Of a stretch of 12,952 nt of DNA, positions 768-12,952 are shown in pieces (positions within the stretch are counted from its first letter, which is position 1; every line of letters begins with the position of its first letter). The stretch is from an uncultured Nitrososphaeraceae archaeon. GTDB lineage: Archaea > Thermoproteota > Nitrososphaeria > Nitrososphaerales > Nitrososphaeraceae. Under the pieces are notes generated by a model. The model was not told the DNA's origin. It did no database searches and worked only from the letters and a program-made list of their open reading frames with translations. The position numbers were made by a program, and so were the translations under genes. Location of the stretch: the NCBI GenBank assembly GCA_963837175.1, contig CAWIMJ010000032.1:1-12952 (forward strand). The letters run 5' to 3'.

Positions 768-900
768 TATTGTGTATTAATAACTTTTTTGTGCATTAAA
801 TTAGAGTGGTGTAAAATGTCGTGTAATTTTTTTAAAATCGTGTAAAGTCGTGTAATTCTGGGCTACACTAAAATGCACTAAAATATATAACTTATTGTGT
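768..900. repeat. Cluster of short GTGTAA-type direct repeats with inverted partners
   Basis: TCGTGTAA at 819, 838 and 848; TGGTGTAA at 807; CACTAAAAT at 866 and 876; TATTGTGT at 768 and 893 (also at 670). Confidence 0.6.
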
Positions 901-998
901 GACCGCAGTTTTCTTGTAGAAATCTACCAATCTCTATCACATAGGATAAAGTATCTATATATCATAAGAAGCGAGTGGTAATAAAGGGACGAAATTGA

Positions 999-1049
999 CA
1001 CGAGTTCGGTGGAACCCAAGACAGATTTGACTCAAATTTACCACCCAGA
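999..1049 (+). repeat. Dispersed palindromic site, copy R1
   Basis: CACGAGTTCGGTGGAACCCAAGACAGATTTGACTCAAATTTACCACCCAGA; 42/51 identical to R2 without gaps; GGTGG...CCACC inverted arms. Confidence 0.92.
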
Positions 1050-1064
1050 AGAAAATCTTATATA

Positions 1065-1262
1065 TTATATTTTAGTACGACCTAACATCAGTGTTATAGA
1101 GTCATATGGTATCATCGTCTGATGAAAGAAGAACAGGAAGATAGTGACTAAGGTTAGAATAAAAAGGAGAAAATCTTTTCTGTCGGCTGTATGTCTTGCA
1201 ATGGCTATGAAAAATACTATAAGCGGTCCAGTAGCAGGTAAAAATGTAACTGTTACTGGCAA
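1065..1262 (-). CDS. Small hypothetical membrane protein or gene fragment
   Basis: 65-aa ORF with two hydrophobic segments, TTG start, no recognisable motif; stop lies about 15 bp from the end of R1. Confidence 0.3.
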   Translation of the reverse strand: MPVTVTFLPATGPLIVFFIAIARHTADRKDFLLFILTLVTIFLFFFHQTMIPYDSITLMLGRTKI

Positions 1263-1481
1263 ATGGATTTACAGATCTTGAGGGGTCGTCAGGTCTTCAC
1301 AGCTGAAATGAAATTCATCCTGTTACTAGAGTTGTAAATGCAAAATAACTTTACTGAATTTGCGAAACTGCATAAGCAGGAATATGATGAATTGCTCTCC
1401 ATTTTATTTTGCATTATTATTACCTCATTATTCTTCTTTCTAATTCAGATATAATTGCAGAATTTTAGGTTTTAGGGAACC

Positions 1482-1489
1482 TTATATAT
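1482..1489 (+). promoter_or_regulatory. Archaeal TATA box for the ester cyclase gene (likely leaderless transcript)
   Basis: TTATATAT ends about 20 bp before ATG 1510 and is preceded by purine-rich AGGGAA (BRE-like). Confidence 0.55.
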
Positions 1490-1509
1490 TGCTCTTAGAT
1501 GTAACAGCC

Positions 1510-1938
1510 ATGGACAAACAACAACCCTCCCACATGTCAGAAGAAGAAGAAAAAAATGAAGCGTTAGCTCTTCGTTACCACAATGACATTTTTTCAAAAG
1601 GCAAACTAGAGGTAGCAGATGAAATTCTATCGTCTGATTTTGTTTTACACAATCCAGTTCTTCCTGAAGAATTACGCAAAGGTCCAGAAGGAATAAAGAA
1701 ATATGCAGCTGCAATAATAGCAGCTGTACCAGATAGAAAACTTGTACATGACGATATTTTTTCAAAAGGAGATAAGGTACTAATCAGATGGACAAATAGT
1801 GGAACAAATACAGGGCCATTGTTTGGTAATCCACCTACAGGCAAACCATATGTTGCAACAGGGTTTGATTTGTTTCGCATTTCAAATGGGAAAATCATGG
1901 AGATGTGGCAGCAATATAATTTTGCCAGCTGGTCATAA
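1510..1938 (+). CDS. SnoaL-like ester cyclase (NTF2-like fold)
   Basis: Family-typical pattern EKNEALALRY...ADEILSSDFVLH...GPEGIK...GDKVLIRWT.SGT.TG.LFG.PPTGK...FRISNGKI.E.W. ATG 1510 preferred to TTG 1489, which overlaps the TATA box. Confidence 0.9.
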   Translation: MDKQQPSHMSEEEEKNEALALRYHNDIFSKGKLEVADEILSSDFVLHNPVLPEELRKGPEGIKKYAAAIIAAVPDRKLVHDDIFSKGDKVLIRWTNSGTNTGPLFGNPPTGKPYVATGFDLFRISNGKIMEMWQQYNFASWS

Positions 1939-2172
1939 ACAACTGCCGACTCATAGATAAAGCTGAAAATCTGATTCATAGGATAGGAATGGAAGAAGCA
2001 TAAAAAAAGCAAGAGTAGAAGAATAGATAGATAGTACCTACTATCGTTTATTGTTAGTTTTTCTCTCTAGATACGTGTGTCAGCAATTCATTCTTTCCAA
2101 TTTTGAGTTATATCAAAGCAGGATTTAAACAAGAAGAATAATCCGCAGTGGTAGTATCTATAGAATTTAATT

Positions 2173-2223
2173 CACGGGTTCGATGGAATGTGGGACAGAA
2201 TTGACTCAAATATACCACCCAGA
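2173..2223 (+). repeat. Dispersed palindromic site, copy R2
   Basis: CACGGGTTCGATGGAATGTGGGACAGAATTGACTCAAATATACCACCCAGA; 42/51 identical to R1 and 42/51 to R3. Confidence 0.92.
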
Positions 2224-2520
2224 TTAGTATAAGGATGATATTATATAGTAATGAAGCAGGAACTATTCACACAAAATAATGAGATCGATATTATCTGAAT
2301 CAATAAGCTGGCTTAAAGGATGTAAATATGGATATACTTACAAGGATAAGATTGTCTTATTTTTGTATATATTAATGCAATCATTATAATAATTTTCATT
2401 ATTGGTATATTTGGTAAGAACAAACTCATAGATACATACTTTAAAAGAACTTATCTGTTAAATTGGATACCTGTAAAATCTGTTCTAGTAAAGATAGATG
2501 GCGCCATACTCTCCTTACCT

Positions 2521-3234
2521 ATGATTCTTGATTATATCATTCTTGTCAAACCGGATTGGGAAGAAAAAGAAAGGGAATTTATGACTCAGTTAAACTTGAA
2601 TTATAATAATAATGCCATAGTTATGGACATTGGTGCAAATATAGGAATTTATACAATATTATTGTCATACATCTATCCAAAGGCTAAGATTATAGCCGTA
2701 GAAGCATCTCCAACTATATTTGAAATGCTTAAATCAAACTGCAAACTAAATAATCTTCTTTTTCCTTCAGGATCACATGTTCTTTTGATAAATAAGGCTA
2801 TATCAGATAAAGATGACATAATAACAGAATTTTATGAGAAGCATAGTATGTCTACAATGCTTAAGGAATTTCTTACAAATCTAAGTTCAACAATATTAAC
2901 CAACCAGGATGAATTGAATAAGAAATTAGTTAGAACAGTAACAATAGATAATTTAGTTGAAACTATAGGCATAAATGAAATCTCATTACTTAAGATAGAT
3001 GTAGAAGGTGCAGAAGTCTTAGCTTTAAAAGGTGCAATCAACACATTAACCCATAAGAAGATAAAGAATATAGTAATTGAGTACCATTCACTTGAAAATT
3101 ATAATTATATAATTAAATTATTGGAGGAGGAGAAGAAGGAATTACGATACACAATAATCGATTCACAAGAACGATTTAATAACAAAGAGACAGAATTCAT
3201 TAATGGCCATATTATGGCAATTTTGCAAGAATAA
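2521..3234 (+). CDS. FkbM family SAM-dependent methyltransferase
   Basis: Motifs VMDIGANIGIY, IIAVEASP, LLKIDVEGAE and IVIEYH. The frame is open back to 2350; the true start is probably ATG 2328 with one extra T in the T-run at 2360-2364, adding a hydrophobic N-terminus. Confidence 0.92.
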   Translation: MILDYIILVKPDWEEKEREFMTQLNLNYNNNAIVMDIGANIGIYTILLSYIYPKAKIIAVEASPTIFEMLKSNCKLNNLLFPSGSHVLLINKAISDKDDIITEFYEKHSMSTMLKEFLTNLSSTILTNQDELNKKLVRTVTIDNLVETIGINEISLLKIDVEGAEVLALKGAINTLTHKKIKNIVIEYHSLENYNYIIKLLEEEKKELRYTIIDSQERFNNKETEFINGHIMAILQE

Positions 3235-3400
3235 TATAATCATCATAAAAAAATTGGTCTTATCTTCATCCATGTTATCTTCTGCTTCAACTGTTACTAA
3301 GGGAAGGTATTTGATTTTAGATGATATTGTACCAATTTAATGTGTTTAAATAAGAAAAGCAACTGCCAGTATCTATCTCATTTTTCTGTTGTTTGTTCTT

Positions 3401-3439
3401 ACACAATAGTCAGATTTGCCTTTTTTCCACATCGAACTT
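3401..3439 (-). repeat. Degenerate inverted copy of the dispersed site (R-inv)
   Basis: Minus strand reads AAGTTCGATGTGGAAAAAAGGCAAATCTGACTATTGTGT. The first 10 nt are identical to R5 and the core GGCAAATCTGAC matches R5 GACAAATTTGAC at 10/12; the right arm is not conserved. Confidence 0.6.
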
Positions 3440-3443
3440 CTAA

Positions 3444-4214
3444 TTAACAACAATAAAAATTATTTATCTTTCCGATCATCGTTCCGCTTACTTTGTCTCT
3501 GAAAATTGTTGAACTTTTTGGGACATACCCATTAGGTTTAACAAGATAAGGAGTACCATAAATGTCAGTTAATACAAATTCATAATGCCATAAAAGGTAC
3601 TTTTCTTCTTCTGTCATTAAGCTTTTTAGTACTAAAGTAGGATCATTATATCCTTCCACAACTTTTGTATTATTATGCCAAATAGGATATTTCTCCCAAA
3701 CAATATGCGATGGCTCTGGTCTATTTCTTATATAGAGTAAACCGGGCTTGTATCCAATAATTATGCTAAATACAATCATTCCTATTCCTTGGAAGAAATA
3801 GCCATGAGATGCATTGAATATTGACTGCTCTGTTGCAAAGCCGTAAGATGATCTATAATGGACTTCTCTGACCATATTAACTGAATATATGGGAAAAAGA
3901 ATTCCAATGGATGTTAGAGTAAGTCCTATAGCACATATTGCTATTGGCGCTATTCCTTTCCAGATTACCGAAATTGCTATAATAGAGATTAGAATAATGG
4001 TTGTTAGGATAACAAATTTTTCAGCGATAGATCCTAGAACAATTTGAACCGTTATAACGGTCAAATGAAGAAGAAATAGTAACATAATACTAACGACGCC
4101 AAGTGTTAGTAGCAATGACTTTTTTCGATTGAACCATTCATTAATTACATAATACTTGGGATGCCGACTATCTTTATGTGAATTATGAGATCTGGATTCT
4201 GATGTTGTGGCCAC
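3444..4214 (-). CDS. Hypothetical multi-pass membrane protein
   Basis: Intact 256-aa ORF with about four hydrophobic segments and a soluble C-terminus; GTG start with TTTTATAA (4238-4245, minus strand) about 24 bp upstream. Confidence 0.8.
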   Translation of the reverse strand: MATTSESRSHNSHKDSRHPKYYVINEWFNRKKSLLLTLGVVSIMLLFLLHLTVITVQIVLGSIAEKFVILTTIILISIIAISVIWKGIAPIAICAIGLTLTSIGILFPIYSVNMVREVHYRSSYGFATEQSIFNASHGYFFQGIGMIVFSIIIGYKPGLLYIRNRPEPSHIVWEKYPIWHNNTKVVEGYNDPTLVLKSLMTEEEKYLLWHYEFVLTDIYGTPYLVKPNGYVPKSSTIFRDKVSGTMIGKINNFYCC

Positions 4215-4553
4215 TATAGTTTAGTAGAATTTTTACCTTATAAAATGATCAAGTTCTCATTAGTTTCTAATTTAACTATATTATTGATTTGTCAGCCTCA
4301 GATAACATTATTGCACATAACCAGTCAAGAAAACGCTAAATTTGACTTTGTTTCATGTTAGGGACATTTTGTGTTATTTAGGGACACTCCTAGGAGTTTA
4401 TGCTCCGTATTTAGCACAGGCTAATAATCACTGATATCGTAACAGGTTAGGTGGTATTAGGTCCCAGCATGTATACGGGTTCTGTTGTTTTGTTAATTTA
4501 GCTTTTCTTTCACTTACAGAGTGTGAACTAGGAATATCTAGTAGAGACTTAAT

Positions 4554-6281
4554 TCAAAGTTTGCAACCCACTAAAATTGGGCTTACTATTATTTTTACAG
4601 ATTCTAATGGTACTAAATCAGGACCAACTATATGTCTTGTTGTTCTTGTATCATCATGTGTTGCTATGTGAGTGAAGTGTGTGCATACCAAACTACAATA
4701 TCCTTGTTCTTAATAAGCTCATGATTCACAAAGTTATCTAGTTGAGCTTCAGAAGGTGAACCTAGTGCCACAATTCCATCATCAAACTGATTTAAACGAT
4801 TCTTTAAAAACCAGATGTCTCTTTTCCCAAAACTATCGGCAATGCCATCATTAGCACCTGGATTGATCAAATAACCTTTACTTGTTTGTTGGTTTTGGAT
4901 TCTCCATTTTCTGTTACTTGAAGGATTTCTTAGCCTCTTAGTTTCATATTTGATCAAATGCCAATTTGATGAGCCTGATATTGGAGGATCATTCGTACTC
5001 TTCTACTACATTCTTTTTTGTATTTCCTACATCAAAGTTGAGTCTCCAGTATACATGGTGGTGATGAGGATTACAAACACAAGAGTCAGTGACAGCACTA
5101 AAACCAAACCGTGGTTTTATAGTTCCATTTGCATGAAGACGCCATTCACTTATGTAGCGATACCATCCTGCCTTCATCTCACTTGCCAGTACTATTTCTT
5201 CTAGTCCATCTACATAAACGGCTACACCAAGAAAGTTTCCCTGATTGCTTCCACTGGCAAGAATTGTTTTAGCTGGAGTGGGACATAATCGAAAACCTGG
5301 TATGACATCATCACCATTTGCTTCAATCATACTTTCTTGCCATTGCCAATCTCTGAAAGGACCGCAAGCATCATGATCATACTGTACGTTTAGGATTGGA
5401 ACATTTGCTCTACGAAGAACTCTTTTTCCCTTATAGTTTACATATTGCAGTTCTATGCCAGAACCGTTTGTTCCTGAAGAAGCAGCTGGTCTTGTTACTA
5501 TGAAATCCCATAGTAATGTATTTCCTTGAGTAACTGTCACTTTGGCACTTCCTGGTGTTCCTCTAGCTGCCGTAGGTTGATTAGCATCAGGAGAGCCACA
5601 AACTAATTCTTCAGCTCTAGAGTTTGCAGGTGCTCTATTATCAAATCTAACAATGGCTTTGTTAATCATATTTACTGCCACAATCTCATGTTGATATTTA
5701 GAACTGCTGTTACTATTACCACCACCACTATTTGTAGGTCGAAGCCCAACACAGAGCGTCCTTTCTATATCTCCATCAGGAGTTTCTTGTATAAATAGAG
5801 GAGGCATTGGTTGATATGGCTTTAAAATGTTGTTCTGTATTGATTCGCCTATACTTGGTTCGCTTTGGCTAAGTATTCGCAACGCCTCCTTCAAACTCTT
5901 CATCATTTGGCAATGGTTGTTGTTTTGATTCGATTATTTCTGTAGGATTGCGTTGACCAAGCTTACCTTTAACGGAAAGACAGCAATTATTCTCATAATC
6001 ATAGTATTTAGCTAAATAGGATTTTGGTAAGGCAATACGCTTGGTGGCGGCAGTAGCAACAGTTTCTGGAAGGAGCTCAACAGATAATAGCCTAGGTGTT
6101 TGTTTATTTCTTTTTCTTTTCTAATTCTTCACCACTTATACTTTTAAGGTAACTTCTGACCTTTGGACGATTAAGAAGTTTACTTGTGAGAGAATTAATA
6201 TTTCTGAGACGTGGGTCCAAAAGGAATCAGTTTTACAACTATTTTATCTTGAGAGCTATTCCCATTATTGGACAATATCAT
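4554..6281 (-). pseudogene. Copper amine oxidase-like protein, frameshifted (main ORF pieces 4989-5906 and 4664-4957)
   Basis: Motifs resembling the copper amine oxidase catalytic domain: GWYRYISEWRLHANGTIKP, HHHHVYWRLNFDVG, NKDIVVWY..HFTH. Manual reading joins frames from MILSNNG (6281) to HIVGPDLVP via about five 1-nt indels (near 6221, 6110, 5890, 4993, 4683). Confidence 0.7.
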
Positions 6282-6402
6282 CTTACAGTATCTATGTTCT
6301 TAAAAAGTATTTTTGATTCTAACAGCACCAAATCAAGAAGGCCATCAGGAGAGCCATTATATTATAAATTATTATAAAATACCTATTCAACTATGTAAAG
6401 TC

Positions 6403-6453
6403 TACGGCCTCGGTGGGATGTTGGACAGAATTGACTCAAATATGCCACCCAAT
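6403..6453 (+). repeat. Dispersed palindromic site, copy R3
   Basis: TACGGCCTCGGTGGGATGTTGGACAGAATTGACTCAAATATGCCACCCAAT; best hairpin of the set (GGTGG-G-ATGTT pairing with AATAT-G-CCACC). Confidence 0.92.
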
Positions 6454-6731
6454 TTCTTACATTAATTCCTATTCAAGTGAATATGCTTGACCTTTGTTTT
6501 TATTATCTGTTAATTCAGCTTTGGTATCTTCTTCCTTACTAATTACTTAAAGTTCCAGGCACACCTTTCTGTTGTTTGCTGTATATTATTAAAATTATTT
6601 TATTAATTGTGTATTTTCTATTTTTATACTTAGCTTAGAGACATGACAAAATATGGCCTGTTGTTTACCAAAAGTTAATTTTACAAGACTATCTATAGTA
6701 TTCCTTATATACTCATTATCATGCTTTTCGG

Positions 6732-7579
6732 ATGTTGTTCCTGAAAATAGTAGCGATAGTTATTTCTCTTCTCTATTCTATGTCCTCCTTGTTTTATGCT
6801 ACAACTCTCACAGTTAATGCTCAATCAGACTTACAGACAATAAAATATAGAAATTTAGTTATAGATTTAGGTAATGGTTTAAAGACTAATGCTAGGCTAA
6901 ATCTTCCATCTATTGGTGACGGTCCATTCCCAGGTGTCCTTCTTGTTCCTGGCTCTGGACCTGTTGATATGAATGAAACTGCAGGCTACGTTCGTACAGA
7001 TAACGAAACAGGCTCAATTATTTATCCGCCTGCTAGACCGTTCTTTGATATAGCTAAATATCTTTCAGAAAGAGGCTTTGCAGTTTTGCAGTATGACAAA
7101 AGGGGCATAGGTGCAAATTTTACAATTTTGGATAGCAATGTATGGGGGAATGCTACATTTGACGATCTAACACAAGATGCAGAGAAGGCGCTCGATGTTC
7201 TTGTACAGCAACCAGAAGTTGATTCTAACAATGTAATTCTAGTTGGACATAGCGAGGGTAAATGGTTGTCCCAAGAGTTGCAATCAACAATCCAGGTATA
7301 GTAGATAATATTGTACTGATGGGGGCAGTGGCCCAGAACTTGCGTGAAATAGGATACTCTCAAGGTGTTAGCACTCCAATACTCTACGCTCAACAGGTTC
7401 TAGACCATAATCACAATGGATTGATATCAGGTACAAGAAGCGTCAGAGAATCCTGTTTTCAGCTCTTTGGTCGGAAATCTCACTCTAGTTCTTGCTCAAA
7501 ATATTACTACTGTCAATGGGACAGCCGAGCAACTCAATTCCCAATATAATTTAAACAACGACACGTCCATAAGCATTAA
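6732..7579 (+). pseudogene. Secreted alpha/beta hydrolase (serine aminopeptidase/esterase-like), frameshifted and apparently truncated at site R4
   Basis: Signal peptide, GVLLVPGSGP, GFAVLQYDKRG and nucleophile motif GHSEG. Continues through frames 7262+ and 7467+ (indels near 7260 and 7431). No segment with the catalytic Asp and His is visible after 7580. Confidence 0.85.
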
Positions 7580-7620
7580 CGGTGGGATGCAGACAGATTT
7601 GACTCATTTTCTCACCCAGA
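7580..7620 (+). repeat. Dispersed palindromic site, copy R4
   Basis: CGGTGGGATGCAGACAGATTTGACTCATTTTCTCACCCAGA; 14-bp core identical to R1, each arm 1 nt shorter, left flank replaced by hydrolase coding sequence. Confidence 0.88.
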
Positions 7621-7816
7621 CTCATTTTCCAGGTATAACAATGCTGATGCACACATTTAAAGGGTCAAATAATGGGGTGTGAAGTATAGTTGCCGTCACA
7701 GATGGAAAATTAGACTTTGGTCCATGAGACTAGAGATATTCTATTATGGAGAATTTGATGGTCGTAGAAATAAGAGAGTATTAGTGAAAGTAATTGGTGT
7801 TGATGAATAGATCTCA

Positions 7817-8353
7817 TTATCTTTTCTGTCTTGATAATGCAGCAATTATGGGAGCATCATTGTTACCAACTACTTCTACTAATTCAGACCAGGTTGCTGA
7901 AGAAACATAAGGAATCTTCTTGACTTGTTCTAATATATTGTATAATTCTGATGAAGTGTTGTATATAATCTCAGTTATAACGTTATTTACGTCATTAATA
8001 CGTGTAGATGAAGATATCGCATTACTTTTATTTCTTTCAAGAATGATTTTTGCTACTTCTTTAGCCTTTCCTCTTTCCACATTTGCCAAAATAATTCCAG
8101 TTCTCAAACCTCCTTTCTTTATGTCTATGAGATATTTCTTTTCTAATATGGAGTCCACAAGCCTTTTTCTTCTTCTCTGAATAGTAGATATAGGAACCTT
8201 ATATTTAGATGCAATATCTGCACTTCTGATATCAGCTTTAGCTAGTAATTCTCTGATTATATTAATATCAATAGAGTCTAAAGGAAACATTTGACTGTCC
8301 TTTTCGTTAATTTTTTCACTTCCAATTGTAGGATTACTTAATTTTCGCCTCAT
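7817..8353 (-). CDS. Lrp/AsnC family transcriptional regulator
   Basis: N-terminal LDSIDINIIRELL...SADIASKYKVPISTIQRRRKRL winged HTH followed by a RAM-like domain; alternative start at the internal Met (MFPLD). Confidence 0.88.
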   Translation of the reverse strand: MRRKLSNPTIGSEKINEKDSQMFPLDSIDINIIRELLAKADIRSADIASKYKVPISTIQRRRKRLVDSILEKKYLIDIKKGGLRTGIILANVERGKAKEVAKIILERNKSNAISSSTRINDVNNVITEIIYNTSSELYNILEQVKKIPYVSSATWSELVEVVGNNDAPIIAALSRQKR

Positions 8354-8381
8354 ATTTTCAGTATACCAGCAATAATTACTC

Positions 8382-8397
8382 TATACTCAGCAGTATA
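8382..8397. promoter_or_regulatory. Candidate operator palindrome upstream of the Lrp/AsnC gene
   Basis: TATACT-CAGC-AGTATA perfect inverted repeat about 30-45 bp upstream of the start; a further half-site AGTATA at 8360. Confidence 0.4.
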
Positions 8398-8414
8398 AGA
8401 ACCCCTATATTAGC

Positions 8415-8458
8415 AAGTTCGATGGATACATGACAAATTTGACCATTTGCAACTCGAA
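8415..8458 (+). repeat. Dispersed palindromic site, degenerate copy R5
   Basis: AAGTTCGATGGATACATGACAAATTTGACCATTTGCAACTCGAA; GTTCGATGGA shared with R2, core GACAAATTTGAC, own TTCGA...TCGAA arms. Confidence 0.75.
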
Positions 8459-8591
8459 AAGAGTAGATTATATCATGCATATGTTGGTAGTGATCTAACA
8501 ACATTCCTACAGCTTTAAATAAAATTAAGAGATTGTAGGAAGAGGTAGGAGAAATAATTATTTAGATAAATAATAATACCTCTGTCTTATC

Positions 8592-9071
8592 TTATCTTAT
8601 CGTTTCTTCTTTTATCAAAGTTTTACGTGCTGTAGATATCAAATATACTGACATGCCAATCATTATTACTTGAAGTGCTTTACTAACCATGTCTAGCTTG
8701 CCTATGTAATACTCTACTCCCACTATTGGAACACCAATTGTTCTAGATGCTACATACGTTGCAATTAATATAACAGATACTGCTGCTACAACAATGTATG
8801 GAATCTTACTTCTAATCTTTGTCTTAAGGATCCAAACAAATAATCCAAGATATACAATTCCAGCGCCTATAAAAAGAGTCATTTCAACTTGTTTTTCTTG
8901 TGTTTCACCTTGGATACCTACTTCCAAAAATTCAAGTAAATCGCCATATTCTTGTGATGCAACTATAAAGTAGATTACAGCTGTTGATACTATTAGTGCT
9001 AACAAAATATACATTATAATAATGGAGCAAGAGGTGATAGACATCTTTCTTATAAACAACTTATCATACAT
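8592..9071 (-). CDS. Hypothetical four-helix membrane protein
   Basis: Intact 159-aa ORF with four hydrophobic segments; loop ASRTIGVP and GKLDMVSKALQ. Confidence 0.82.
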   Translation of the reverse strand: MYDKLFIRKMSITSCSIIIMYILLALIVSTAVIYFIVASQEYGDLLEFLEVGIQGETQEKQVEMTLFIGAGIVYLGLFVWILKTKIRSKIPYIVVAAVSVILIATYVASRTIGVPIVGVEYYIGKLDMVSKALQVIMIGMSVYLISTARKTLIKEETIR

Positions 9072-9234
9072 CTTATTTAAATACTATAATAATAAACATC
9101 ACTAAGTTTATTATTAAAACCAAAAATCAAACTAATTCTTGGTATTAAAACCGAATTTATGGTACACATATTAAGATAATTGGTCAGTAATGAGATTGCA
9201 CTCATTTAATACATATGTGATCTACTGGGTGATT

Positions 9235-9693: not shown

Positions 9694-9711
9694 CACCTAG
9701 AGGAGAAAAGA

Positions 9712-10344
9712 TTGGACAAAGTTCTAGAGGCAGTTCTCAAACGACAAATTCCCTTTATTATAGGTGGTACTATAACAGGTATAATTATGACATATTACTA
9801 TGGCTTTTTATTTAGTATTATCATAAACAGTGCTATTTGGATGTTTATCTCTTTTATTGTCAATAAGTATTATTGGAAGTCAACAGGATTTAAAGATGAG
9901 AAGTATCTTATGCACTATGCATTGAAAATATTTACAAAACCATTTATTCTTACTCGCCTGAGAGCTGTTCACCTTTTAGTAGTAAATGACCATTGTTTAG
10001 CTGAATCTAATGCATTACCTGCTAGATCTTCTGCTCCTATATCTATTGCAGCAACATATTTAGTATTTGGAGAAAAGTCTTGCGTAGAATCAAATATAGC
10101 AGTTTTACCATCTGAGCTAAGAGAGACTATACCTGTTATAGCGGTAGTCTCATCTGCCTTTTTTACAGTGAATGTATTTGCATTAATAGACGGACTGCTC
10201 ATAGGCTCACTAAACGTAGCGCTAACAAGCGAGGTAACTGGAACTTCTGTGGCTCCATCCGCAGGCATAGTATTAAGTCACTTTTGGTGGTACTTTCTCG
10301 CCAGGTGGTTTTGTAGCAGAAGCGAGCAGCTGCTTTCTCTGTAG
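9712..10344 (+). CDS. Small two-helix membrane protein; only the first 75-85 codons look real, the rest is read-through antisense to the Ig-like gene
   Basis: TTG start preceded by GAGGAG, directly after the SRPBCC gene; two hydrophobic helices; beyond about 9969 the ORF mirrors the minus-strand Ig-like domain. Confidence 0.55.
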   Translation: MDKVLEAVLKRQIPFIIGGTITGIIMTYYYGFLFSIIINSAIWMFISFIVNKYYWKSTGFKDEKYLMHYALKIFTKPFILTRLRAVHLLVVNDHCLAESNALPARSSAPISIAATYLVFGEKSCVESNIAVLPSELRETIPVIAVVSSAFFTVNVFALIDGLLIGSLNVALTSEVTGTSVAPSAGIVLSHFWWYFLARWFCSRSEQLLSL

Positions 10345-11392: not shown

Positions 11393-12222
11393 TTAAGATA
11401 ATTCAGCAGATTTATCATCCCAGTTTAGAATCACATTCTTTATTATATAGCCATCTGCACCTACAGCAGGAATGGATTTGAAAAAATCTCCTTCTATTAA
11501 TTTGGAACGAGAAAGAATATCATGGATGTTGTCTCTATTATTATTCTTTGAGTTTGCAGATTCTTTAGCATATATTTTCTTGGCACTTTCAATTGCATGA
11601 GGTAAATCAAATAATATACCATGAAGATTGGGATTATTCTTTAGAATAGTTAATAAAAGCATTCCTTGTCCTCCTCCAATATCAATAATAGTATTAAATT
11701 GTGAAAAATCATACATAGAAGAGATTAATGAAGCGTGTAAGGAGGTAAGCGAAGCCATTACGCTGTTAAATATTTGAGCCTCTTTTTGATTTTGCTCAAA
11801 ATACTCATATATTTCCAAGCCGTTTGCATGTTTAAATGAATTCTCCCCAGTTTGTATGCTGTATAAAAGATTATCTATAGCTTTCTTAAATGGTTCTATC
11901 AAAACAATAAAGCAAAATTTCTAATTGAATCTTTTGCTTCAGATTGAAGAAGAGATGCCATAGGTGTTAGCTCAAATCTTCTTATTCTTGTTTGATTAAC
12001 TTGTTGTTCTTGTTTTTCTCCTTCTTTCTCTTCTGCTTTTGTTTCACCAAATATACCAATGCTAGCTAGCATATGCAATAACCTATAAAGAGAATCAGGA
12101 TGAGTTTTGGTCTCTTCTGCTAATTTCTCAAGGCTTTTAGGACCATCTTTTAAATAATCAGTTATTCTTAGCTTTGCAACAATGTATATAGCCTGAGTAG
12201 TTAACTGGTCGCGAGCAAGCAT
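11393..12222 (-). pseudogene. SAM-dependent O-methyltransferase (Methyltransf_2 with N-terminal dimerisation domain), frameshifted and C-terminally incomplete
   Basis: AKLRITDYLKDGPKS..LAEET..HPDSLYRLL dimerisation domain; IIDIGGGQG, LFDLP, GDFF, ADGYIIKNVILNWDD. Split near 11900; after a further shift near 11401 it reads IILKNCLEAMK and then stops. Confidence 0.88.
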
Positions 12223-12341: not shown

Positions 12342-12952
12342 TTGAACAATTCAATTATGTTGCCTGCGATTGTTACTGTTGTTATTATTGCTCTAATGCT
12401 TGTCATTATCAGCTTGGGAATATCTCTTCCAATTAACATCACAACATATGGTCAACAGGAGCATAAGCTCAATGATACAATCAGTGAAAACAGTAAAGTG
12501 GTAATTCTAACTTTTGGCGATACCCATAAAAGTCAATTTACTACAGCCAAACCAATCCTGGATAAATATGGATTTAAGGCAAGTTTTTTTATTACGTGTA
12601 GTTATGCAGAGGATTGAAAGAAAACACAGCATTTGAGCTGGAATGATATACTTACATTACAAGAAGATGGACAGGATATAGAGTCCAAAGGTATGACTCC
12701 AGTAAGTAATCCCCAAATCATGTGTCTTCAAAAGCTTTGGATTTTGAAACTGCCAATTCTAAACAATGCTTGGAAAATCACGGTATCAAAACACCAAACA
12801 TCTTTGCAGCAAAATATGGTAATGTATGGAATAATAAAACTGTGATAGATGCAATATCCAAGTACTACGGCTTTGCAGACAATGGAATTGCTTCATTAAT
12901 GTATTTGCATTGTGATGGATACAAAAACAAGTCTCCAAGTCAAACTGATTGT
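12342..12952 (+). pseudogene. Polysaccharide deacetylase (NodB/CE4-like), membrane-anchored, frameshifted, runs off the window end
   Basis: N-terminal TM helix; KVVILTFGD...AKPILDKYGFKASFFIT and LSWNDILTLQEDGQDIES in successive frames. Confidence 0.82.

Follow-up and report, generated by a model that had tools for sequence, protein, structure and literature searches.

The window analysed here is the whole 12,952-nt contig C32 of an uncultured Nitrososphaeraceae archaeon, a soil ammonia oxidiser, whose assembly comprises 3.81 Mb on 58 contigs at ~34% G+C (91% complete, 3% contaminated). The genomes compared carry G-numbers, with G000 for this source genome, and C-numbers denote their contigs. 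The window holds six short repeat sites on its plus strand, which delimit modules of accessory genes, and the core of these sites corresponds to the 3′ end of a tRNA-Lys gene located on another contig of the same genome. We interpret the repeats as tRNA-Lys attachment (att) sites of integrase-driven modules in tandem arrays, a reading to which we assign a probability of a little under 0.8.

Repeat sites and cargo genes of the window

A repeat search of the window returned three 51-nt copies starting at 999, 2173 and 6403 (R1 to R3), with ungapped identities of 42/51 for both R1/R2 and R2/R3, as correctly calculated in an earlier note on this DNA, and of 36/51 for R1/R3. The 12-nt motif GACARAWTTGAC is present five times, always on the plus strand (positions 1020, 2194, 6424, 7592 and 8432), against an expectation of 0.01 in the window, and five copies were reached by 0 of 200 shuffles. 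The five same-strand copies described in the earlier note are thus real. An unfiltered scan of the window with a sequence-only covariance model retrieved five sites and nothing else above noise; R1 to R4 belonged to the seed of this model and their matches therefore hold by construction. R4 was found independently by a profile made from R1 to R3 only (E 2.3e-4), and R5 (8410–8455) is a degenerate copy. Moreover, nhmmer revealed a sixth same-strand site at 4441–4513, which belongs to a sister family, C, and lay outside the profile seed. It divides the long R2–R3 interval, and the start-to-start intervals are therefore 1174, 2268, 1962, 1177 and 824 nt. A degenerate inverted copy that had been proposed near 3420 was not recovered by the covariance model, with 0 bits (E 7.9) on the minus strand and 2.5 bits (E 1.3) on the plus strand. 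Scans of the whole window detected no tRNA and, at E up to 1, no Rfam match. Each site can be read, on the plus strand of the window, as a variable left flank (U) followed by a 15-nt core and a conserved right arm (D):

999–1049, plus strand: site S1 (R1), family A; core at 1001–1015, then the A arm; 51.9 bits
2173–2223, plus strand: site S2 (R2), family A; core at 2175–2189, with a "U-a" flank before it; 62.9 bits
4441–4513, plus strand: site S3, family C; degenerate core and a longer stretch resembling a tRNA T-arm; nhmmer E 3.5e-14
6403–6453, plus strand: site S4 (R3), family A; core at 6405–6419; 56.3 bits
7580–7622, plus strand: site S5 (R4), family A, 5′-truncated; 40.7 bits over model positions 13–57
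8406–8455, plus strand: site S6 (R5), degenerate family A; 16.1 bits and E 7e-5 in the covariance model, E 0.044 with the second-round profile

The flank preceding S3 resembles the 3′ flank of the tRNA-Lys gene, and S5 begins at CGGTGGG, without CGGGTT. As had been noted before, the genes bounded by these sites are functionally unrelated accessory genes:

1489–1938, plus strand: module 1, SnoaL-like protein (PF07366, E 1e-27)
2521–3234, plus strand: module 2, FkbM-type methyltransferase (PF05050, E 4e-20)
3444–4214, minus strand: module 2, 256-aa protein matching no Pfam family, judged from its hydrophobic stretches to be a putative membrane protein
4664–5906, minus strand: module 3, copper-amine-oxidase-like gene in two open reading frames (ORFs; 4989–5906 and 4664–4957)
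6732–7579, plus strand: module 4, alpha/beta-hydrolase gene (Pfam), frameshifted, with its 3′ end cut by S5
7817–8353, minus strand: module 5, AsnC/Lrp-type helix-turn-helix regulator (PF13404, PF13412)

The PF01179 matches of the two module 3 ORFs are weak (E 3e-4 and 2e-3), both under the curated cut-off. The hydrolase gene that is cut by S5 runs on past that point in G003:C298, and the region upstream of the AsnC/Lrp-type regulator gene forms the multi-copy "U-b" flank of S6. Several window genes are split into adjacent ORFs; these are the copper-amine-oxidase-like gene (4664–5906), the alpha/beta-hydrolase gene (6732–7682), an O-methyltransferase gene (11393–12222) and the last, unannotated gene (12342–12952).

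A tRNA-Lys 3′ end as the common core

The origin of the core became apparent from profile matches that covered only the left part of the repeat and continued into other conserved sequences, one of them into a tRNA. The repeat opens with 15 nt, CGGGTTCGGTGGGAT, that read in reverse complement as the 3′ end of tRNA-Lys(ctt), which ARAGORN places at G000:C7 c[3527-3621]; they cover in this orientation the 3′ strand of the T-stem, the 3′ strand of the acceptor stem and the discriminator base. At up to two mismatches, the last 15 nt of this tRNA occur 51 times in G000 against 0 times for the reversed control, which is the highest copy number among the ends of the 30 G000 tRNAs found by ARAGORN, and the 14-nt core GGGTTCGGTGGGAT has 77 matches, its reversed control two. 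When tRNA ends were compared with the window, matches came from tRNA-Lys(ctt) alone. The earlier note had proposed the sites as a new kind of recombination site, a proposal that has to be given up, as the common core is the 3′ end of tRNA-Lys(CTT), a classic target of tyrosine integrases.

The tRNA-Lys(ctt) gene itself is 95 nt long and carries an insert of ~20 nt in the variable region, which may be a non-canonical intron. ARAGORN finds only 30 tRNAs in G000, and therefore many intron-bearing tRNAs were probably missed. The 3′ ends of some other tRNAs are also multi-copy in G000 at up to two mismatches, with counts of 21, 11, 10 and 10 that may include real tRNAs with similar ends. The end with 21 copies is common to tRNA-Ala(ggc) at C16:85931 and a tRNA at C50:203777, and the ends of tRNA-Val(gac) and tRNA-Ala(cgc) have 11 and 10 copies, which suggests parallel att families.

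The 50-nt family first described is only one of several arm families on this core. According to nhmmer, G000 contains 63 sites with the type-A arm, which is the family of the earlier note (GCAGGACAGAATTGACTC..CCACCC), 24 sites with a type-B arm that contains a 14-nt palindrome, 27 sites with a type-C arm that retains a T-arm-like stretch and 10 sites with a type-D arm that carries CCGATATCGG; further conserved arms also follow the core. The flanks before the core fall into few families, one of which is the 3′ flank of the tRNA-Lys gene. Left flank and right arm types are combined freely across sites, and differently armed sites have in common only the ~15-nt core. Likewise, the 400-nt flanks of type-A sites form families, and upstream and downstream families are paired in many ways. 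Core position 12 varies with the arm type, being G in 23 of 24 type B and C sites and A in four of five type-D sites, an association that gives a hint, and only a hint, of the crossover position. The cleavage points of an integrase would be expected within GGGTTCGGTGG.

The palindromic character ascribed to the sites survives as a 13-nt duplex dyad, AATTGA-C-TCAATT, which is visible within the conserved A arm and may be a protein-binding site. It does not extend to a folded structure: RNAalifold predicted a single 5-bp stem, in which GGTGG pairs with CCACC over a loop of 28 nt, and counted one compensatory change among 24 sequences, and DNA folds of both strands of R1 to R3 were no better than those of shuffled sequences (z −0.57 to +1.65 for the six strands).

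In the source genome, the profile from R1 to R3 recovered 54 copies at E up to 1e-3 and 63 in a second round. Most type-A sites are intergenic (54 of 63, on a crude ORF map), and the nearest genes around them show all four combinations of orientation (16/16/14/7) at variable distances. This agrees with the earlier statement that the sites keep no fixed distance or orientation to genes and argues against an operator or leader. Altogether, 111 sites were counted in G000, spread over 39 contigs and spaced at a median of 3.6 kb, and adjacent sites point the same way in 59 cases and opposite ways in 13. Within 5 kb, 76 of the 111 sites have a neighbour, compared to 26.6 on average and at most 40 for random placement (500 trials), so that the sites, as anticipated, cluster in co-oriented arrays. 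Near-identical site-bearing stretches are present on C23/C35, C28/C40/C26, C30/C31, C18/C9, C8/C55, C10/C11 and C45/C51, and may represent true duplications or co-assembled strain variants; the G000 site counts may therefore be somewhat inflated. Furthermore, four paralogous genes, which we read from their translations as histidine kinases (G000:C36 12295–13989 and 31874–33676, C17 58999–60717, C34 104890–106533), end 110–124 nt from type-A sites on the opposite strand and have a common 3′ flank.

A connection between the tRNA and an array was found in G007, a complete 2.84-Mb genome from a different genus. It encodes tRNA-Lys(ctt) at 2091279–2091368(+), and all five of its family-A model matches (2096573–2133258) lie within the 42 kb downstream of this gene on the predicted strand. 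In 80 kb of G007, all 18 core matches at up to three mismatches fall on the predicted strand; a few of them, inside coding repeats, are probably due to chance. G007 thus has an intact tRNA followed downstream by co-oriented displaced ends; the contig of the window reaches no tRNA. Another array, on G005:C17, spans 37 kb with nine sites in one orientation (types A, B-like, C and D) and encloses an intact integrase gene of the family described below, whose module also encodes a response regulator and hydrolases and carries no replication genes. Some core-to-core units are only ~104–106 nt long and consist of arms without cargo.

Model matches were found in all seven same-genus genomes, G000 included (25–65 each), in 10 of 18 other genomes of the family (1–23 each) and in none of 16 genomes belonging to different families of the same order. 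Among the 80 listed of 92 stretches with the same site, the named records are Nitrososphaeraceae, Nitrosocosmicus-type, Nitrososphaera sp. or generic Thermoproteota metagenome-assembled genomes (MAGs), and include two cultured Candidatus Nitrosocosmicus strains and one MAG labelled Nitrosopumilus sp. A scan of viral contigs with a degenerate form of the type-A site gave 0 matches, and hence no free viral or plasmid attP there.

Breakpoints, probable module exchange and a candidate integrase

A BLAST comparison of the window with five same-genus genomes showed that the sites coincide with breakpoints of homology, as the earlier note had foreseen: 13 of 33 alignment endpoints, counted by hand from the BLAST table (alignments of at least 400 nt, positions 900–8600), fall inside the six sites, which cover 3.7% of this span. 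Homology with G001:C76 stops at 2189 and homology with G003:C151 begins at 2174, both in S2, and homology with G003:C464, G005:C36 and G006:C383 begins at 4447–4456, in S3. On G001:C76, the SnoaL module lies between two sites, with neighbours other than in the window, and is followed, after its right flank up to the core, by a type-D arm, whereas in the window the type-A arm and the methyltransferase gene come next. The methyltransferase module is in turn preceded on G003:C151 by a core with the tRNA-Lys-flank type, and G003:C464 keeps the module 4451–6419, then continues with a different arm, so that homology stops at 6419. In G005, modules of the window are distributed over separate, often large contigs (C14, C15, C25, C29 and C36) at 71–94% identity, although some of these matches may be paralogs. 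Exchange between sites with only ~15 nt in common would favour site-specific over homologous recombination. The module pair C16/C51 was rejected as a clean unit, its interiors being mosaic.

At least half of the sampled words of the window are contained in 20 metagenome runs of seven studies, available as assembled contigs and labelled soil metagenome or metagenome (two without organism label). To look for population variants, four runs from four studies (X1, X2, X4 and X18) were aligned to the window, and stretches without contig cover in some runs are uninformative. A 936-nt contig of X1 shows a joint from 6423 to 7592 (shorter side 132 nt) and a contig of X4 a joint from 6410 to 7580 (shorter side 58 nt). 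These contigs, from two studies, join S4 to S5 and precisely lack the 1168–1169-nt hydrolase module, and the flanking parts of the joined form are single-copy in G000. In addition, X1, X2 and X4 contain other continuations after the S6 flank, some contigs carry a full site at S6, and S1 has a different left neighbour in X18 and is joined to S4 in X1 (side 26). Two joints that lead backwards, from 8409 to 1004 (X1, side 32) and from 8403 to 6416 (X2, depth 2.3), were rejected as circles: their sides are at most 32 nt and the left flank is multi-copy, so that they cannot be read in this way. A joint from 1050 to 9202 (X1, X18) was also discarded as a window variant, as it most likely derives from a paralogous locus, e.g. 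G000:C8 near 98.7 kb. Furthermore, metagenome contigs show 1-nt deletions relative to the window at 7430, 8443, 10279, 10324 and 10596, and some of the frameshifts in window genes may therefore be strain-specific or assembly errors.

Three other repeats were observed in the window. A 223-nt unit at 9699–9921 has five copies in G000 (82–94% identity) and at least six in same-genus genomes; in all four metagenome runs, contigs break off or diverge at precisely position 9921, which is a module boundary without a tRNA-Lys core. A ~330-nt repeat at 600–960, just left of S1 (~240 nt in BLAST, 72–95% identity), has 11 BLAST matches in G000, including the large "core" contigs C50, C25 and C47. It contains four iterations of CGTGTAA(A/T), has no Rfam match and may represent iterons, the end of a transposon or an unknown RNA. 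Finally, a ~160-nt unit at 7640–7799 has three copies in G000 and is also present in G002, G003, G005 and G006 at 81–86%.

A candidate enzyme is encoded beside the tRNA-Lys gene. A PF00589 match in G000 (C7:2493–3047, minus strand; 32.4 bits) belongs to an integrase gene whose start lies 148 nt past the tRNA 3′ end and which is transcribed in the same direction. In the same position, G002:C198 carries an intact 384-aa gene (P0001) that is 95% identical to the G000 copy over the C-terminal part, and G021:C62, from a different genus, carries a 47%-identical relative beside tRNA-Lys. P0001 scores 23.9 bits against PF00589, below the cut-off of 27.1, and matches PHROG_1 "integrase" at E 3e-12; the positions R, H-x-x-R, H and Y were recognised in the integrase by eye. 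Among solved structures, P0001 has no sequence relative (best match E 0.9, unrelated). The integrase family is present in 27 of 41 relatives, several G000 paralogs adjoin other tRNA genes (Met, Val, Ile), and G005 has one family member after tRNA-Arg. The enzyme was rightly said not to be encoded in the window, but the genome does offer a candidate, and the tyrosine recombinase gene that had been suggested as a neighbour of the sites is found beside tRNA-Lys in G000, G002 and G021. Another of the suggested enzymes, an HUH transposase, here of the Y1 type, received no support, with 0 matches of PF01797 in G000 (91% complete). On G000:C12 (23232–25366), a same-family integrase gene located 1.9 kb from the type-A site at 21300 is interrupted by an ORF (23878–24351, minus strand) that we read from its translation as transposase-like.

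Proposed integrase-driven modules and rival explanations

These observations can be combined in a model in which the sites are made and used by a tyrosine integrase directed at the tRNA-Lys(CUU) 3′ end. The recombination partner of a circular module with U, core and D would be the tRNA gene or any core copy that has been displaced, and integration would regenerate the tRNA and displace the old tRNA end. Repeated integration would stack modules head to tail, leaving co-oriented cores between the arms of different modules as junctions. Recombination between two direct cores would excise the intervening DNA, presumably as a circle, and re-integration elsewhere would shuffle the modules. The window would then represent part of such an array, comprising at least five modules of 0.8–2.3 kb, several of them with decaying genes. 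That this particular integrase catalyses exchange at the core is inferred, as are the place of the crossover, the binding of a protein to the arms and the movement of integrase-less modules in trans. The earlier idea of recombination sites thus stands with respect to arrays, breakpoints and site-to-site loss of a module, but neither as a new kind of site nor as a system without an enzyme.

The mechanism as such is known, and what appears unusual is the density and the cassette-like form: small units with few integrase genes within them, mixed arms on one core, and a type-A arm that is conserved across genera. From 111 sites at the median spacing, arrays may by our estimate make up about one tenth of the genome. 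A further-reaching version, which we consider possible but doubtful, is that one integrase beside tRNA-Lys(CUU) moves more than 100 integrase-less modules in trans, as an integron-like platform of gene capture. In this version, modules would carry their own promoters and interchangeable arms around the 15-nt core.

Several observations weigh against integrase-driven arrays. The integrase copy beside tRNA-Lys is frameshifted in G000, which could be an assembly error, and the ~12 copies of the family in this genome are mostly fragments. The family also occurs in genomes without sites and does not track the sites phyletically, so that its presence is not specific to them. In the G007 island, PF00589 and tblastn searches detected no integrase, and this array may be a fossil. 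The loss between S4 and S5 joins two type-A sites with ~43 nt in common and could be explained by homologous recombination. Moreover, the 23 matches of G021 are scattered over ~19 contigs instead of forming one array, and in G000 some sites lie within large contigs at a great distance from any tRNA-Lys gene; both observations call for rearrangement or secondary integration as an explanation.

Much of this would also be expected if the sites were inert scars, i.e. remnants of old att sites whose surroundings were shuffled by segmental duplication, ordinary decay and homologous recombination among the 50-nt repeats. The many split or truncated window genes would fit such a history, as would the fragmentary integrases of G000, the G007 island and the one precise loss, and, according to a review, tandem archaeal elements exchange modules by homologous recombination (PMC8371274). 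We nevertheless regard inert scars as unlikely: the ~15 nt shared by exchanging sites with unrelated arms would be a short substrate for homologous recombination, the type-A arm is kept across genera, which argues for constraint, and intact integrases are encoded beside tRNA-Lys in G002 and G021 and within the G005 array.

The strong conservation of the primary sequence, including the 13-nt dyad, and the intergenic position of most type-A sites could also indicate a binding site for a regulator or a chromosome-organising protein, or a small-RNA gene. The four gene orientations and variable distances speak against this, as do the lack of an Rfam match at E up to 1, of a stable fold and of meaningful covariation, and no promoter at a fixed distance was recognised when reading the flanks. 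As such a function would also leave the tRNA 3′-end identity, the tRNA-anchored array and the breakpoints unexplained, we consider it very improbable. Even less credible are ends or relics of transposable elements, such as miniature inverted-repeat transposable elements (MITE) or elements of the REP/RAYT or IS200/IS605 type. In favour, the family is multi-copy, short and mostly intergenic, and its members are co-oriented, as single-strand transposons can show orientation bias relative to replication. However, PF01797 is without matches in G000, no hairpin is predicted, inspection by eye of the aligned flanks revealed neither terminal inverted repeats nor target duplications, and the flanks themselves form recombining families.

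Integrons have been reported in Archaea (10.1101/2022.02.06.479319), and gene-sized spacing, co-orientation and unrelated cargo are reminiscent of attC sites in a cassette array, but this explanation is extremely improbable given a core that is a tRNA end, cargo genes on both strands, the absence of an attC-like hairpin and a closest stretch (GTTCGGT) that misses the R″/R′ box consensus, compared by eye, at one position. Neither an IntI-type integrase beside an attI site nor folded attC structures of the bottom strand came to light, and the earlier note was right in setting the sites apart from attC. Four further candidates were dismissed by eye: C/D-box small RNAs and origin-recognition boxes, whose boxes do not match; a retroelement primer-binding site, since no TGG precedes the core; and split-tRNA halves, since just one acceptor strand is present.

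Among known systems, integrative elements and islands that target tRNA genes are the closest to integrase-driven arrays of the kind proposed here. Both have an att core that is identical to a tRNA 3′ end, and both restore the tRNA at one border while its displaced fragments all point the same way; in addition, the integrase gene adjoins the tRNA, one site is re-used in tandem and att is short. Islands that target tRNA genes are catalogued in Islander (PMC4383910), and thaumarchaeal att sites are mostly <26 bp (PMC6563490). The principle that repeated use of one tRNA site builds tandem arrays is found in PMC4383910, PMC6563490 and PMC8371274. Krupovic et al. (2019) described 74 integrated elements across 20 thaumarchaeal genomes; the cryptic ones, which by definition carry an integrase, have a median length of 17 kb (PMC6563490). 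In contrast, a single 3.8-Mb genome here has ~111 sites at a median spacing of 3.6 kb, most modules are without an integrase gene, and several unrelated arm families occur on one core, with some units of ~105 nt of arms. With integrons, the arrays have in common a resident tyrosine recombinase beside a primary site, co-orientation, and small units with unrelated cargo and no recombinase of their own that are gained or lost at the boundaries. They differ from integrons in that the sites are double-strand, tRNA-derived sequence motifs instead of folded attC hairpins, that cargo on both strands precludes a common promoter logic, that the integrase is located on the side of the primary site that faces the array and that it is a divergent PF00589/PHROG_1 protein. 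Gene capture in Sulfolobus, a subject of She et al. in 2001–2002, reportedly involves few, larger integrated elements, in which the integrase gene is often split by integration. These elements likewise reportedly have direct repeats overlapping tRNA genes and an integrase that is later lost; the integrase next to tRNA-Lys described here is not split. Our literature searches, and this negative extends no further than they do, yielded no description of the site family or of arrays in which about a hundred short modules use one tRNA-derived core.

Nitrososphaeraceae, including those of the Nitrosocosmicus type, are major soil nitrifiers with unusually large and paralog-rich genomes. The sites mark the flexible part of these genomes and explain their assembly into many small contigs. 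To our knowledge, genetic tools are lacking for this group, and the short core with its arms and the integrase represents a candidate tool for site-specific integration. If the arrays are fossils, they would constitute an ordinary, though extreme, record of past integrations. If they are active, they would provide a concrete mechanism for the entry and shuffling of accessory genes, and mobilisation in trans, should it hold true, would be a principal way for these large-genome archaea to take up and rearrange accessory genes, e.g. those for histidine kinases, regulators, methyltransferases and hydrolases. Active arrays would moreover represent an archaeal parallel to integrons that arose from ordinary integration at a tRNA site.

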